From a virus, in IMG/VR virus record IMGVR_UViG_3300033562_002694: 64,000 nt of DNA; one strand, given 5' to 3'. Position 1 is the first letter of the stretch, and each line of letters starts with the position of its first letter. The notes under the pieces are model-generated. The model was not told the DNA's origin and ran no database searches. It saw nothing but the letters and a program-made list of their open reading frames with translations. Below are positions 3,951 through 52,654 of this stretch, piece after piece. A program made the position numbers and the translations under genes.

Positions 3951-4450
3951 TGCAACAAAAATTTGATGTGAAAATGTTAAAAATTGCTTTTGAATCAGCA
4001 CAAGAATCAAAAGCAGAAAAAAGACAAGTAGGAGCTATTGTTGTTGATATGGCAACTTTATTACCTATAAGTTACGGACATAATAAAATGTATCACGAAT
4101 TACGTGAGAAAAATTGTGAAAATGAATTCGGTGAAACATATGAATGTGTTTTGCATGGTGAAGAAGTGGCTATTTTTAATATGATAAAATTACCCAATTA
4201 TTCCAAAGAAATTTCAAAACATCAGAAAACATTATATTGCACTTACAGTCCTTGTATGAATTGTTGTAAATTGATTGTGAATGCTGGAATAAAAAGATTG
4301 GTTTATTGTGATGAACATAAATCTAATTTCGTAACTTCAGAAATAATTAACGGTTATAGTCCGAAAGATTTTCTTGAAGAAATGGGTGTTAGTATCACAA
4401 GAATTAATAAAGCAACTGTTTTTGGTAATACACATAAATTTAGAAAATGA
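3941..4450 (+). CDS. dCMP deaminase / cytidine deaminase family
   Basis: RQVGAIVV, HGEE and SPCMNC Zn-binding motifs. Confidence 0.88.
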   Translation: MELMQQKFDVKMLKIAFESAQESKAEKRQVGAIVVDMATLLPISYGHNKMYHELREKNCENEFGETYECVLHGEEVAIFNMIKLPNYSKEISKHQKTLYCTYSPCMNCCKLIVNAGIKRLVYCDEHKSNFVTSEIINGYSPKDFLEEMGVSITRINKATVFGNTHKFRK

Positions 4451-5493
4451 AAAATACAATTCCAAAAAAATTAGCACTTATTCATCATATTGATAATGAT
4501 GGATTAATGTCAGGATATTTATTATCTCTGTATTATCAACAAGAAATTCAAAAAGGTTCAGCTGTTTTAATTCCATATAATTATACAGTTTATGAATCTT
4601 GGATGATTGATGATTCTTTTACAGAATATGTTTTTGTTGATATTACACCGCCTTTGGATTGGATAAAATCAAGAAAAAAAGAAATTCTTAAAGGAAAAAT
4701 TAATGTAAGTATTTACGATCATCATTTGGCCAAATATCAAGAAATTGAAAAATTGTTGTTATCAAAAGGTTGGGAAAAACTAAACAGTTTTGTTTTCAAA
4801 TACATATTTGATGAAACAAAATCAGGTTGTAAAATACTTGCTTTGTCGCTTGGGTTCAAAAATGTAAATGGCTTTTCTTTTGAAGAACAGGAAAACATTG
4901 AAAAATTAAAATTGTTAATCGATATAATTTCCGATTATGATACATGGGTTTTTACTTCGAATGAATATGTAGGTCGAAAGTTTAATGAAAATGATACATA
5001 TATGGGAATTGTAAAAGATGATATTCTTGCAATCAATACACATATGATGGATTTTAAAGATTTGACAAGTTTTTCAAAATTGATTAATTCAATAATTGAC
5101 AAATCTTTTTTTCAAAATGCAATATTTGAATTGATTTACGAAGGAAAACAAAAAATTAATCAAATCATAATTGAAAACGAAGCAAAAATTCGAAAAGGAT
5201 ATTATTCGCAAGAAAAGAAAATATTTATTTTTGAAGGTTATCCAAATTATTGGATTAGAAAACAAATTGAATCAAAATATCCTAATTGTATTTATTGGAT
5301 TGGTTATATAATCGATTTAGCAAAACCTCTAATCAAATTTAGTATTCGTAGTGAAAAAGCAAATGATTGTGTTGAAATTGCAAAATTTTTTGATGTAAAC
5401 GGTGGTGGACATTCAAAAGCAAGCAGTTTTACTTTGTCATTGTCTAATGGATTTAATTTTTTGTGTTGTCCCGAAATTTTTTTCAAAGTATAA
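4447..5493 (+). CDS. DHH/DHHA1-family phosphoesterase
   Basis: HHIDNDG, FVDI, YDHH, DYDTW, FSIRS and GGGH motifs. Confidence 0.85.
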   Translation: MKNTIPKKLALIHHIDNDGLMSGYLLSLYYQQEIQKGSAVLIPYNYTVYESWMIDDSFTEYVFVDITPPLDWIKSRKKEILKGKINVSIYDHHLAKYQEIEKLLLSKGWEKLNSFVFKYIFDETKSGCKILALSLGFKNVNGFSFEEQENIEKLKLLIDIISDYDTWVFTSNEYVGRKFNENDTYMGIVKDDILAINTHMMDFKDLTSFSKLINSIIDKSFFQNAIFELIYEGKQKINQIIIENEAKIRKGYYSQEKKIFIFEGYPNYWIRKQIESKYPNCIYWIGYIIDLAKPLIKFSIRSEKANDCVEIAKFFDVNGGGHSKASSFTLSLSNGFNFLCCPEIFFKV

Positions 5494-14969: not shown

Positions 14970-15533
14970 ATGTCAAAAGAAAAAAATGAACTGACCGAAG
15001 GTCTTGAAGAATCAACATTAAGCGAAGTTACTGAAACAACTGAAACCGCTCAGGAATCAAAACGTAAAGTACAAACTCCTGAAGAACGTGAAACACTTGT
15101 AGCCGGTGCTGAACAATTGAGATCAATTGGTATTTCAGACCGTTTAAGCAAAGTATTGGTACTTGCTGTTGATTGGAACACTCCAAAGGAAACTGTTCAG
15201 CCTGCAAAAGAAGCTCTTATTAAAGAGTTTGGAACATCTGATGCTCTGAAGGATTACGTTGATACCGATTTCCAGAAAGAATTACAACCATTTGCTGGTA
15301 TTGCAAAACTTCTCCCTGTTTTGAATAACATTAAATCTTTTTACGCTCGTCGTGAAAATACCAGTGTTTCAAAGAAGGTTAAATATGTTCAGGCCTCTAT
15401 TTCCGGAACCATTTACAATGTCAATGCCGCTTATATGGCTGAAATTGCAAATCTGCCGAATGCTGAAAAGAAACAACTTCTTCTTGCTCACCCTGATACC
15501 AATTCGGTTGAAGTAATTGAAGAAATTCTTTAA
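14970..15533 (+). CDS. Hypothetical protein, paralog of 23398..24075
   Basis: Acidic N-terminus, shared C-terminal pattern ending IEEIL; codon usage resembles the capsid gene. Confidence 0.8.
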   Translation: MSKEKNELTEGLEESTLSEVTETTETAQESKRKVQTPEERETLVAGAEQLRSIGISDRLSKVLVLAVDWNTPKETVQPAKEALIKEFGTSDALKDYVDTDFQKELQPFAGIAKLLPVLNNIKSFYARRENTSVSKKVKYVQASISGTIYNVNAAYMAEIANLPNAEKKQLLLAHPDTNSVEVIEEIL

Positions 15534-15549
15534 ATCATTAAAATCATTG

Positions 15550-16011
15550 ATTTCCGGCCGCGCCGCAGTCAAATTTATTGTTGATAAATTGTCGCCGATA
15601 TTCGTATCGGCGGCAGTTTAACCAACAAAATTTAGACAGCAATATTTCGGAAATCAATTGCCAACCGTTCAGTTGCTCGGTAATATCCGTGCGAAGATCT
15701 GACGGTTTCTACCAGACCGCTTGGTATTTACGAAATATCCATGCGAAAATCTGGCGCCCGATGGAGTTATTCGAACAAAAGAGCAAATAGTTCGGATTTT
15801 TGTGAAAACAAAAGCTCCACTAAATGCTTGCTCGCAAGTCAATAAAACTTGATTTGTTCTTGTGCTGAGATACTACGCATTTAAGCGTTTATAATAGCAT
15901 AACTAAAATTAATGATTTTCGGATATCAACTGGCCCCGTACTATATCCGGCGCCAGTACCAGCCGCGGTTTTCGCCAATAGGCGGTTATATATACCATAT
16001 CGGCACGAAAT
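15550..16011 (+). ncRNA. Putative large structured non-coding RNA (unassigned)
   Basis: GC-enriched non-coding tract with multiple hairpins (UUCG and GAAA loops), pairing 5'/3' ends and an H-type pseudoknot. Strand inferred from tetraloops and flanking genes. Confidence 0.65.
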
Positions 16012-16306
16012 AATTCGAAAACTTAATTTAAAAATTTAACCCATGTTTTGTTTGGTTTTACCATTCGGGGTAAATTTTTTTAAAAATATTGGTTGATAAA
16101 TTGATTTTTTTGTTCAAAGTATGGAATTTATTCCAAGTAAAAATCGATTCGTTCATATTTTGCTATTTTTGCTAAAATTTTAATTTCCAACCGAAACGTG
16201 AGGAGTCGAAAATGTGGACTGGTTCCGAGTCTCGTCAATGGAAGAATGCGGACAATCAAGAAAAATCTTCCGTGATTGGAGAAAAGTTAAATTTTCTCCA
16301 TTCTAC

Positions 16307-16379
16307 TGTCTGATAGTGTAATCGGTAACACGTCTGATTTTGGTTCAGAAGAGTTCAGGTTCGAGCCCTGATCGGACAA
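16307..16379 (+). tRNA. trnQ: tRNA-Gln (anticodon TTG)
   Basis: Acceptor TGTCTGA/TCGGACA, D arm GTGT/ACAC, anticodon arm TCTGA-TTTTGGT-TCAGA, T arm TCAGG-TTCGAGC-CCTGA; no encoded CCA. Confidence 0.93.
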
Positions 16380-16500
16380 CAAATTTAAATTTGTGCTGAA
16401 TTTGAATTTTTATTGATTATTTGTTTTGTTCTTACTTGAAAGAAAGGGGGTTGTTAATTCAATCCCCTTTTGTTGGTTTAAAAATTTTTTTGTCCGAATG

Positions 16501-29796: not shown

Positions 29797-30450
29797 TTAA
29801 ATTATTTTTATTTCAACGTTTTTGTGTAGAATATTTTTTTCGAAAAGAGTAGGAATTGCTTCTTGAAGGATTTTTTTATCTAACCCATAAGTATCAGACT
29901 TTCCAAATAAAAACAAAGTGTCTTTAAGTTCGGAATTAACACCAGTAAGATATCGAAATTCCATTTCTTTTGAAGGATTGATAATTTCTCGAGCATTTCC
30001 AATAACAAAATTATAAAATCCACCAGCAATACAATCACATGAAATTTGAGAATTTAATTTTTTAAATTCAGATTCTAATTTCGAATGTGATGTTGCTGAA
30101 TTTCCAAATGCCCAATGAAATTTATTATTATTAAATTCTCTCAAAATAATAAATCTTAAACTATTGATTGGTTCTTTTGAACAAACACTTGGAAGTGAAT
30201 CAATTTGCTTTTGAATTTTTATTTTGTGATAATATGATTTCAATAATAAGGTTTTTTCAACATTTTTCATGTGTAATTCCAAACGAAACCAACGATTAAA
30301 TACTTTACAAGGATAAAAAGTATCATCTGTAAAATAAATAGTAGTTTTGGTTATATTTCGAACATGAACTTCAACATCATCAATAATAAATTTATCATCT
30401 TGTGATGCTTTATTTTTTGATTTGTTTTTGATAATTTTGAATTTAATCAT
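29797..30450 (-). CDS. Hypothetical protein
   Basis: 217-aa ORF. Confidence 0.65.
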   Translation of the reverse strand: MIKFKIIKNKSKNKASQDDKFIIDDVEVHVRNITKTTIYFTDDTFYPCKVFNRWFRLELHMKNVEKTLLLKSYYHKIKIQKQIDSLPSVCSKEPINSLRFIILREFNNNKFHWAFGNSATSHSKLESEFKKLNSQISCDCIAGGFYNFVIGNAREIINPSKEMEFRYLTGVNSELKDTLFLFGKSDTYGLDKKILQEAIPTLFEKNILHKNVEIKII

Positions 30451-43431: not shown

Positions 43432-45075
43432 TTAAAAGTTTTTGTCATCTGTTTTCGTGATATTTTCTTCTTCGATAATTTCTTCTTCAACAATTTCTTC
43501 TTCATCTTTAGTTTCTTCAATTAAAACTGTTTCGTCTGCAAATCCCAACATTTTGTTTTGAATTTTTCTTTCTTCTTCCATTGAATCCAATTGTTCTTTA
43601 GTAAAATCAAGATAATTTTTGACAATCCAACCAATTGGTACTGCTTTTCTTGCAACTCCATTAACATCTTCAAGTTCACCAAATTCAGCAATACTTGTTG
43701 CTAATTCGATTTTCTTTTGCATTACTTCAATTTCGGCAAGTTTATCATATTCGTTAAATGCAAGCCATTGCATTTTAATTGAATCAAGCAAAGAAAGATC
43801 AATACCAATTTCAATTTCCTTTAAAGTTAATTGAATAATAATTGGTTTCATAAACATCTGATTCAATAATTTACGAATCATGTTTATGAATTTAGCGAAA
43901 TTTACTTCAATTTTTCGTAAACTTGAAACATCAGTAAACCCCCAGGAATCACTCGAATTAGGGTCAATTCTATCGTAAGGAATATCAGTATCTTTCCAAA
44001 ATAATTTTTCCCAATATTGTAATGAATCAACTTCTGTTAAATCTGGACCGTTTGAATTTATTTCTTCGATTTCAGGACTTCCAGAAGCAACAGTTTCAGC
44101 AGTAAAAAATTCCCTATAACCACTATTATTTGGTTGATTATTAAATTTGACAACTCCATCATCTCCAAAAGTGAAATGATTTATATATTGATTTTTTGAT
44201 TCCGTAAGTTTTTGGACAGCTTCTGTTCTTGCAACATCTCCCATCGCAAGTTTAATATGCATTCTTACTTGAGATTTCGCAGCAAACCAAAGAATTTTTG
44301 ATGTTTGCATCGAACGCATAATATTAAATGACATTCGAAGTTTATCAACATAACTTATATAACCATAATCAAATTTATTCCATTCAAGCAATATGATTTG
44401 ATTTTCATTTAAAATTCTTTGTTTTCCATTATTATCTGTTAAGGATTTTTGTACAAAATATACATAATCTCCTTCTTTGAATTTCTGAATAGATGAAGGA
44501 TCAATTGGAATTACTCCAATTATATCTTTGGGATTTTTTAGATTATCGTAAATAAGTTCAAATGCTAATTTACCTGTTATAATAAATTCTTTAACCGTAT
44601 CAATTAATCCATCTTCCTTTAGTTGATAAAATTGATATAATTGCGGAAAAAATACTTGGTTCAAATATTCATCAATTGCTTTTGCAATTTCTTGTTTATC
44701 AGGAGGAACTAAAGTAAAATTTATTTTTGGAAATACTGGATATTTGTTTGTTTCAGCATCTATAATAACTGTTTCATTTGCTAATATATTTACAGCTTTT
44801 TTAATTTCATTATTTTCTGCAAATAAAAGTAAATCATTTCGATAATTAATATTTGTTAATGGAGAAAATGCGAAAGTATTCCGATAACGAATATCAGGAT
44901 TAAACAATAAAGTATTTCCATTTGTGAAATATATTGGATCCGATGCAGAACCAACCGCATTTTTTTGAGCTTTTTTGTCAATTTTATCAGAAGTATTGGC
45001 AAGCAATATCTTTTTAGATATTGTTTTTTCAATATTCCGAGCTCCCAATATGTTGATTCCGTTAGTTAATTTCAT
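43432..45075 (-). CDS. Portal protein (T4 gp20-like)
   Basis: EIKKAVNILANE, GKLAFE, IPIDP, YVDKL..FNIMRSMQ, LYWEKLF...IPYDRI, IEVNFAKFI..IR. Confidence 0.85.
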   Translation of the reverse strand: MKLTNGINILGARNIEKTISKKILLANTSDKIDKKAQKNAVGSASDPIYFTNGNTLLFNPDIRYRNTFAFSPLTNINYRNDLLLFAENNEIKKAVNILANETVIIDAETNKYPVFPKINFTLVPPDKQEIAKAIDEYLNQVFFPQLYQFYQLKEDGLIDTVKEFIITGKLAFELIYDNLKNPKDIIGVIPIDPSSIQKFKEGDYVYFVQKSLTDNNGKQRILNENQIILLEWNKFDYGYISYVDKLRMSFNIMRSMQTSKILWFAAKSQVRMHIKLAMGDVARTEAVQKLTESKNQYINHFTFGDDGVVKFNNQPNNSGYREFFTAETVASGSPEIEEINSNGPDLTEVDSLQYWEKLFWKDTDIPYDRIDPNSSDSWGFTDVSSLRKIEVNFAKFINMIRKLLNQMFMKPIIIQLTLKEIEIGIDLSLLDSIKMQWLAFNEYDKLAEIEVMQKKIELATSIAEFGELEDVNGVARKAVPIGWIVKNYLDFTKEQLDSMEEERKIQNKMLGFADETVLIEETKDEEEIVEEEIIEEENITKTDDKNF

Positions 45076-45083
45076 ATTTTGTT

Positions 45084-45974
45084 TTATTTTTTAATTACAG
45101 ATGTTTGGGTCTTTTGTGCTTCAAAAGCTTTTATCCGCGCATTGTCGTAATATAAATTATCTGTTAATTCAAACTTAAATTCTTCAACATTCACATATAT
45201 ATCTATTAATGAATTGTTAATTAATTCGCGTAAAATTTCCAAATAAGTTTTAATAGTTAATGACTTATTTGGTATTGATTCATCTTTGTTGACAATATTA
45301 TAATTGTCCAAAACATCTGTTTCTAAATCGTAACAAATAATTGAACCCGTAGTATTGGTTACAAATAATAATTGTTTATTTGATTTATCGAAACAAATGG
45401 CAAGTATTTTTTGATTTGTTAATCCAAATCTTTCAAATAATTCTTTTTTCAAAGATAAATTATTACAAATATCAAACCCATTTATAATTATAGGTTTTTT
45501 TGCTAAAATTTTAATTTTTTGAATTTCTTTAGATATATTTTTTAAATCATTTCTTTTGGATAATTCAAGTATGATATTTTTTAAATCATTCTTGAACGAC
45601 ATAATATCTATTTGTGAATTTGATTGAGACATATCATTACTGACATTTAAACTTTCGTTCAATGTTCTTTGTAAATTTATCTCATAACCATCAAGAAATT
45701 CATAAACTTTTTGAAAATATGCGTAATAATTTCCTCTTGTGTTTTTAACAAAAATTGATTCTTCTGGTATTTTTGAAATTATTTGTGAATTACCAGTATT
45801 TTCAAATAAAGGATTTATTTCTTGAAATAATTGTATCATATTAAAATGATACAAATTATTTTTTGATAAATTATTTTCATTGAGGGACGGCATTAATTTG
45901 GAAATTTTTTTAATTTCCTCATTACATGTCAATATTGTTCCAACAATTAATTGTTCTTTTTCTTGTGTGTTCAT
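45084..45974 (-). CDS. Hypothetical protein (LNE motifs)
   Basis: 296-aa ORF. Confidence 0.7.
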   Translation of the reverse strand: MNTQEKEQLIVGTILTCNEEIKKISKLMPSLNENNLSKNNLYHFNMIQLFQEINPLFENTGNSQIISKIPEESIFVKNTRGNYYAYFQKVYEFLDGYEINLQRTLNESLNVSNDMSQSNSQIDIMSFKNDLKNIILELSKRNDLKNISKEIQKIKILAKKPIIINGFDICNNLSLKKELFERFGLTNQKILAICFDKSNKQLLFVTNTTGSIICYDLETDVLDNYNIVNKDESIPNKSLTIKTYLEILRELINNSLIDIYVNVEEFKFELTDNLYYDNARIKAFEAQKTQTSVIKK

Positions 45975-52288: not shown

Positions 52289-52654
52289 TTAATTTTTATC
52301 ATTTGAAAATAAAACTTCAATTGAAATTTGTTTATTTTTTCCTCTTGTGATGAAATTAAAATGGATTCGTAAATCATTTGAAATCATAGTGGTATAAAAG
52401 GAAAAAACATTATCACTAACAGCAGGATTAAATTTATCCCATTTGCGCCAAGCTTCTGAAACTGCGTAATTAACACAAGCATTCAAATCGCATGTATTTT
52501 TATAATTAAATGTAGTGGCAAAATGTTTTGCAATTTTAGTAAATAAAACAACCAATTTTTCTGTCGGTTTACCATTTTCAATTGACGTATTATATTCGGC
52601 GAATAATTCTTTTGGTGTTACGTATATTTTGGATTTGACAGATTTTTCGATCAT
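52289..52654 (-). CDS. Late sigma factor-like protein (T4 gp55-like)
   Basis: DLNACVNYAVSEAWRKWDKFNP...NVFSFYTTMISN (sigma region 2 only). Confidence 0.7.
   Translation of the reverse strand: MIEKSVKSKIYVTPKELFAEYNTSIENGKPTEKLVVLFTKIAKHFATTFNYKNTCDLNACVNYAVSEAWRKWDKFNPAVSDNVFSFYTTMISNDLRIHFNFITRGKNKQISIEVLFSNDKN

Follow-up and report, generated by a model that had tools for sequence, protein, structure and literature searches.

A conserved hairpin within a GC-rich, stably folding non-coding tract of a phage RNA-gene island

The locus and its coding status

The window is the whole stretch of viral DNA analysed here, 64,000 nucleotides from IMG/VR record IMGVR_UViG_3300033562_002694. At the locus considered, the flanking genes (a helicase, several unknowns and a conserved gene encoding a 187-aa protein) all lie on the + strand. 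The tRNA-Gln gene is also on this strand, 296 nt downstream of the tract under study (15546-16011), confirming the predicted tRNA neighbour (Table 1). The tract has a GC content of 41.6% against a window mean of 27.5%, and a scan of the whole window shows that just 0.16% of 466-nt windows equal or exceed this value. The remaining GC-rich windows are coding: they correspond to the 187-aa gene itself (37.4% GC), to a paralog of this gene at about 23.4 kb and to a presumably coding stretch at 39-40 kb. As a guess from its raised GC, the 187-aa gene is probably highly expressed. Its product has no Pfam or PHROG match, and its AlphaFold model, mainly helical (pLDDT 74), found no match at E≤0.001 in a fold search against PDB and BFVD.

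In line with the original prediction, made from the letters and open reading frames, the tract is rich in GC, folds stably and is non-coding. No credible gene is present between 15534 and 16561. All tblastx matches between the tract and 43 related loci, fetched around homologs of the 187-aa protein and numbered L below, had E>0.5, and no frame was kept. The 70-aa TTG ORF (15578..15790), named in the prediction as the coding alternative, shows no protein-level conservation among the 43 loci and has no Pfam or PHROG match; relatives sharing the core described below lack a corresponding reading frame in three-frame translation. Blastn searches of GenBank phages with the tract returned tRNA-Gln matches only, and blastn and tblastx against the fetched loci and the window gave nothing significant except the tract's own inverted repeat. 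A MITE or other repeat element was considered and rejected, since the tract is single-copy in the window.

Rfam models were scanned at gathering score, with a permissive pass at E≤10 over 15300-16500. Together with ARAGORN, these scans identified tRNA-Gln alone in this region, the permissive pass adding noise; a faint RNaseP_bact_b trace (13.2 bits, threshold 97) lies on the - strand at 16032-16080, beyond the tract. As anticipated, the tract itself matches no family at either setting, including tmRNA, RNase P, group I intron, GOLLD and ROOL. Other Rfam ribozymes likewise gave no covariance-model match in the tract, and the proposal of a ribozyme is not upheld, there being no sign of catalysis. 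The possibility of a degenerate tmRNA was rejected: ARAGORN called none anywhere in the window, where tRNA-Gln was its sole find, no T-arm was seen on reading 15534-16200, three-frame translation of the tract contains no tag reading frame with a hydrophobic or Ala-rich end, and the conserved hairpin A (below) coexists with an intact tmRNA.

Table 1. Positions of features, folded segments and conserved motifs in the window and in related loci (L)
Feature	Position	Strand	Evidence or description
187-aa gene, conserved	14970..15533	+	37 homologs
Long near-perfect hairpin, 113 nt	15546-15658	+	MFE -47.6 kcal/mol, z -7.9, high pairing probability
Tandem hairpin modules, alike in design	15663-15707 and 15712-15754 (region 15663..15757)	+	z -2.4
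GGAG/CUCC-closed region with candidate hairpin U and GAAA-capped hairpin (15797-15814)	15763..15818	+	Fold
Hairpin A, 9-bp stem, loop UAAAAC	15834..15857	+	High pairing probability, conserved core
Hairpin S, 3 bp (CUU GUGCU GAG)	15859..15869	+	Aligned with small hairpins of L005 and L040
3' domain: hairpins 15929-15957 and 15973-15984, candidate pseudoknot words	15913..16012	+	Fold
Weak hairpin followed by seven-U run	16039..16078	+	z -0.7
D motif, small conserved RNA directly upstream of tRNA	16198..16275 (~45-nt core 16198-16240)	+	Sequence conservation, covariation
tRNA-Gln (UUG)	16307..16380	+	ARAGORN, Rfam
Intrinsic terminator of D motif/tRNA unit	16442..16471	+	Terminator scan
Folded segment	15540-15665	+	z -7.9
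Folded segment	15659-15762	+	z -2.4
Folded segment	15760-15860	+	z -3.2
Folded segment	15832-16014	+	z -3.3
Folded segment	15905-16015	+	z -1.1, alone not significant
Tract minus first hairpin	15659-16012	+	z -4.9
tmRNAs of relatives	L006 3645-4097; L008 3656-4101; L009 3634-4084; L011 3646-4094; L017 2607-3019; L020 3636-4046; L025 3854-4330; L041 943-1348; L024 4360-4818
D motif copies	L002 4130-4200; L004 988-1060; L005 1551-1625; L006 4721 and 4939; L008 4753; L009 4685; L011 4645; L017 3835; L020 4749; L042 4650
AGGAAGAAC-type motif	L002 ~4245-4258; L004 ~1168-1182; L005 ~1718-1730; L042 ~4818-4830
GATAGCTTCTAAACTAC block	L002 3960-3985; L005 1470-1490; L040 1788-1803

Folding of the tract and its parts

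The whole tract folds on the + strand with an MFE of -155.9 kcal/mol and a z of -7.4 relative to shuffles, in agreement with its predicted structured character; the - strand gives a fold z of -5.1. Much of the whole-tract value is owed to the first hairpin alone (z -7.9). Coding control windows as long as the tract minus its first hairpin (n=8) were mostly at z ~0, but two of them, window 30000-30353 and 45000-45353, reached -2.6 and -3.8, respectively.

The first hairpin begins 13 nt past the stop codon of the 187-aa gene and appears in blastn as a self reverse-complement match. Its tip is the UUCG-looped stem of the original prediction, present with high pairing probability and 16 bp long (15585-15600/15605-15620) rather than 11. 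Its base is a perfect 12-bp helix (15546-57/15647-58, probability 0.92). This local helix competes with the proposed pairing of the two ends of the tract (15550-60 with 16001-11), which are complementary at only 9 of 11 positions. The tract is composite; a single RNA closed through end-pairing is not supported, and the new ~460-nt ncRNA proposed earlier is borne out in part, for a small conserved core. The hairpin lacks a terminator U-tract, being followed by GUUUAACC, and the terminator scan omits it. Shorter hairpins occupy the same post-stop place in relatives (L040 1372-1401, L041 ~903-930), and an exact IMG/VR scan for the UUCG stem gave 0 matches. An independent Logan contig (L039 3565-3642) is identical to window 15534-15611 and stops right where the long hairpin has its tip, as is typical of assembly breaks at inverted repeats.

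Downstream lie two tandem hairpin modules, the first of which had been predicted and has high pairing probability. They contain a 23-nt direct repeat (15682-15704 and 15734-15756, 87% identical). In the following region, previously read as a multiway junction, the GAAA-capped arm is highly probable and the junction is unsupported. Candidate hairpin U (15770-15776/15790-15796), with an A-rich 13-nt loop, belongs to a fold lying 1.6 kcal/mol above the MFE. No U-tract comes after hairpin A, and hairpin S competes with a longer hairpin of the MFE structure (15860-15902) that has high pairing probability. The weak hairpin with its seven-U run further downstream is possibly the 3' end of the transcript; in L008 the corresponding place is taken by a clear terminator.

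Several long-range pairings of the original prediction involve words that are indeed present and complementary: taaatgc/gcattta, gaccgc/gcggtt and the two 6-bp stems of the candidate pseudoknot. Among these only the 15929/15952 stem of the pseudoknot belongs to the MFE fold, within hairpin 15929-15957, which has high pairing probability, and none has comparative support; by our own rough estimate, about 25 complementary words of 6-7 nt are expected by chance per 460 nt.

Recurrence of the hairpin core in related phages

A long non-coding island follows the 187-aa gene in nearly all fetched loci. A canonical tmRNA gene lies in this slot, 73-300 nt past the stop codon, in L006, L008, L009, L011, L017, L020, L025 and L041, and L024 carries one farther downstream. 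These nine tmRNAs score 47.5-82.2 bits in Rfam (threshold 47); their tags, as called by ARAGORN, end in ...LAMAV, ...LAFAA or ...IAA and their T-arms read GGUUCGA. One to six tRNAs come after, tRNA-Gln being the last. In the protein tree, the window groups with L004, L002, L005, L040 and L042 in one clade (99/99 support), and no tmRNA was detected in any of these six. The tract has no similarity to the tmRNAs of relatives. The gene downstream of the tract, tried as a second anchor, gave no homologs.

Two further observations concern the RNA genes of these islands. L018 carries, at ~833-858 just past the gene, a lone T-arm-like hairpin (GUGUGG UUCGAUU CCACAC), where neither a full tmRNA nor a tRNA is called; possible readings are a remnant and a mini tRNA-like-domain form of the kind reported for a mycobacteriophage (PMC11915505). 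Within a six-tRNA array of L012 (4171-4264) and L013 (4199-4292), ARAGORN reports a tRNA of 94 nt whose anticodon has four bases (UUAA), possibly a suppressor, frameshift or intron-bearing tRNA.

Significant sequence similarity to the tract was found in L005 alone (window 15821-15857 against L005 1251-1286, z 5.3, with 0/200 shuffles as high), and L040 has the same block. The three sequences share hairpin A, whose 9-bp stem closes a UAAA(A/G)C loop, and after it a hairpin of 3-4 bp. They were used to build a 45-nt covariance model (R1), with which 223 kb were searched. The best matches outside the training set were L011 4327-4367 (E 0.29) and L008 4428-4470 (E 0.32), a non-syntenic match within the window (30135-30195, E 0.3) ranking between the two, followed by L009 4232-4273 (E 3.5). 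The matches in L011, L008 and L009 are all syntenic, between the tmRNA and the next tRNA; with filters off, L002, L006 and L042 score within the noise (E 1-2).

Hairpins with a U-R-A-A-R-C loop on a stem of 7 bp or more were also sought, over 210 kb that did not include L011. Nine were found, against an average of 0.84 and a maximum of 4 in shuffles. Eight lie in the slot or past the tmRNA (window, L005, L040, L002, two in L006, L008 and L009); the ninth is at window 52302-52321. According to a looser listing, L011 also has the hairpin in its post-tmRNA stretch, and look-alikes with a deviant loop in L042 and L018 are possibly further recurrences. IMG/VR was also searched with a degenerate hairpin A pattern, and none of the 43 matches was related. 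Where a tmRNA is present, hairpin A is located 115-335 nt downstream of it, and in L008 a clean terminator follows ~170 nt beyond. This arrangement of a canonical tmRNA in the slot of sister phages, with the conserved hairpin downstream, is new relative to the original prediction. The coexistence of hairpin A with a tmRNA upstream of it indicates that the conserved piece belongs to a separate element, termed X here: a candidate family with a covarying stem of 7-10 bp and a U-R-A-A-R-C loop in the RNA island that lies downstream of the 187-aa gene and, where there is one, of the tmRNA; it is represented in the window by 15834-15857.

Covariation among homologs was found for hairpin A. In a gap-free alignment of nine hairpins, 91% of the cells are paired and seven of the nine pairs have changed on both sides, a count that is partly ascertained because three of the hairpins (L002, L006, L042) came from a search demanding a hairpin. 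No shuffle out of 500 reaches the alignment value, and slid controls stay at or below 41%. The + strand is favoured as the RNA strand of the tract, since G-U pairs in the stem of hairpin A would turn into A-C mismatches if the opposite strand were the RNA and since the neighbouring genes and the tRNA all lie on +. These features bear on the possibility that the tract acts as DNA rather than RNA, for example in starting replication, as a site of packaging or recombination, or as a palindrome bound by a protein. The long inverted repeat and the break of the independent contig L039 inside it would fit such an element. However, the stems covary with an asymmetric loop kept, the G-U pairs exist on the + strand only, there are neither iterons nor an AT-rich unwinding tract, and the surroundings are RNA genes, so that a DNA-level role appears highly improbable.

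The wider architecture of element X was not recovered: alignment of the divergent elements with MAFFT and RNAalifold gave unusable alignments. By eye, GAGU and a hairpin with a 13-15-nt A-rich loop (AAAAG..AUA) precede hairpin A in L006, L009, L008 and L017, and the window is able to form a similar hairpin at 15770-15796. A model seeded on hairpins U and A of L006 (R2) finds L009 (E 0.027) and not the window. Also by eye, the window resembles L005 and L040 in its 3' domain, each showing a stem that closes the domain, a pair of hairpins and an AUAUAU stretch; a model from the L040 3' domain (R3) finds neither of the other two. Both R2 and R3 are single-sequence models of little power. One local alignment equating the 3' half of the window tract with the region past tRNA-Glu of L004 (z 2.8) was not convincing and was set aside. 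Solid comparative support is limited to only 24-45 nt, and the portion conserved in structure, judged from compensatory changes, is a stretch around 15764-15869 that measures ~45 nt and no more than 110 nt. Lineage-specific parts are the long first hairpin, the duplicated modules and the 3' domain with its pseudoknot region, and about three quarters of the tract is confined to the lineage of the window.

This patchy conservation could reflect decay, with the tract lying in a hypervariable island, composed of duplicated hairpins and of pieces of a former tmRNA or tRNAs, and devoid of present function. The ancestral slot had a tmRNA that was lost in the clade of the window, most of the tract has no relatives, the isolated T-arm-like hairpin of L018 stands right behind the gene, and the internal 23-nt duplication suggests sloppy rearrangement. 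Yet residual similarity to the tmRNAs of relatives is absent, neither Rfam at E≤10 nor ARAGORN detects anything, and hairpin A coexists with intact tmRNAs and hence is not derived from them. Moreover, unselected DNA in a 27% GC genome should not hold 42% GC and a fold z of -4.9. A decaying remnant is accordingly considered decidedly unlikely. In the clade of the window the tmRNA has been lost and X kept. X is dispensable, as the slot of L004, the closest relative (79% aa identity), measures only ~120 nt.

A second conserved RNA, the D motif, is separate from the tract. Its P1 stem is of the GAGAG/CUCUC type and its P2 hairpin carries a CUGG-type loop; it also has an invariant GUCGAAAAUG-like strand, and is followed by a further hairpin with a GCAAUCAAGAAA-type loop. 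Twelve copies, located by sequence rather than structure, occur in 11 loci, with 94% of the cells paired and six of nine pairs changed on both sides; the two copies of L006 flank tRNA-Glu. The D motif has no Rfam match. Its covariation is cleaner than that of the tract core and it may be the more tractable discovery. Two sequence motifs recur in its vicinity. One, AGGAAGAAC(U/A)(A/U)AG-like, is found past the tRNA or tRNA-like unit after the D motif and before tRNA-Gln. The other is a conserved block, GATAGCTTCTAAACTAC, just upstream of the AAATTTTTTAAAATATTTTTTG promoter-like stretch preceding the D motif; the window differs from this block at the corresponding place (16039-16103).

Proposed function and comparison with known systems

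The tract is probably an RNA made in a phage tRNA/tmRNA island. The reading we prefer, to which we give about even chances, is that of a + strand RNA forming part of this island and made up of two pieces, the post-stop hairpin and element X. The 113-nt hairpin is likely to be an mRNA 3' stabiliser, a processing site or a terminator-like element, and its most probable role is in protecting or processing the mRNA of the 187-aa gene at its 3' end. Element X would be a structured RNA of ~350 nt (15659-16012). Its core would comprise hairpin A with its U-R-A-A-R-C loop, the small hairpin after it and perhaps the GAGU-flanked hairpin before it. This core seems to have been kept across related phages while peripheral hairpins were remade in each lineage. 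In sister phages X has the tmRNA on one side and a terminator on the other, and precedes the tRNA unit, a position which suggests an RNA gene or domain of its own.

A promoter belonging to element X was not found; a promoter-box likeness between 15571-15591 and 16083-16103 (8 matches against 4 expected) was discarded as not significant. There is no promoter room between the post-stop hairpins and the tmRNA of relatives, which suggests that X is transcribed by read-through from the gene and tmRNA before it, processing then probably setting it free. That X is transcribed, processed and active in trans is what we infer. As a guess by analogy, X could be a stable RNA with a part in translation, in tRNA biology or in taking over the host. 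Such roles are suspected for other RNAs of phage tRNA islands.

The tract could instead work purely in cis, with no RNA acting in trans. It would then be a structured spacer or long 3' UTR with a part in terminating, stabilising or directing the processing of the mRNA and of the tmRNA/tRNA precursor. No promoter of its own was found, the strongest structure starts 13 nt past a stop codon, relatives also have a hairpin straight after the stop, and the element is variable and can be missing, as in L004. Against this, in the tmRNA-bearing relatives a whole tmRNA gene parts the conserved hairpin from the protein gene, the conserved asymmetric loop on a covarying stem exceeds the needs of a terminator, and hairpin A has no following U-tract. 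A purely cis-acting tract is thus thought somewhat unlikely. If it were merely a 3' UTR or spacer, the finding would be an ordinary one.

Returning to element X as an RNA in its own right, it is plausible that it represents a new, narrowly distributed phage RNA element. A more far-reaching version would make it a new class of large structured RNA working with the phage tmRNA and tRNAs, either as a ROOL/GOLLD-like RNA-only assembly or scaffold, or as a decoy or regulator of the host translation or tRNA-targeting machinery, the U-R-A-A-R-C hairpin being the key contact; this we regard as unlikely. Phage tRNA islands keep giving large RNAs of unknown role, such as GOLLD and ROOL, to which the present locus contributes a candidate family, found in a low-GC group of uncultured phages from lakes, bogs and guts. 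Since X lies next to the tmRNA in some members and survives tmRNA loss in others, this natural presence/absence series of X and tmRNA could be used to probe the role of such RNAs in phage translation.

Among known systems, tmRNA shares features of position and size with the tract. Phage tmRNAs, truncated forms included, are documented (PMC11915505), and those of the relatives are 410-480 nt long, similar to the tract, occupy the same slot straight after the same gene and have tRNA genes alongside; the tract could possibly also have pseudoknot-like complementarities. It differs in having no tRNA-like domain and no tag frame, and Rfam and ARAGORN are silent on it whereas the tmRNAs of relatives score 47-82 bits. 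Post-stop stem-loops, such as terminators, RNase III sites and mRNA 3' stabilisers, are comparable to 15546-15658 only, a stable hairpin with a UUCG tetraloop. This hairpin is far longer (113 nt), has no U-tract, and is followed by structure that continues downstream.

Element X belongs to none of the large or small non-coding RNAs associated with phage tRNA clusters, namely GOLLD, ROOL and the RNAs of the T4 cluster, although it resembles each in part. In the T4 tRNA cluster, the small stable RNAs rnaC and rnaD, of about 120-140 nt, have no known function. They are phage RNAs lying within, and co-transcribed with, a tRNA cluster, a likeness drawn by description only, and the tract is longer than these RNAs. 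GOLLD and ROOL are large structured ncRNAs of phages and prophages found beside tRNA islands, also of unknown function, many GOLLD members exceeding 800 nt (PMC12286853). The tract is unmatched by either Rfam model at E≤10, is, at about 350-460 nt, smaller than those GOLLD members, has a conserved core of a few small hairpins, and contains an element so far present in one group of uncultured phages only. Like GOLLD and ROOL, it is large, GC-enriched, strongly structured, non-coding and next to a tRNA and, as in GOLLD, one part of it is conserved and another poorly conserved.
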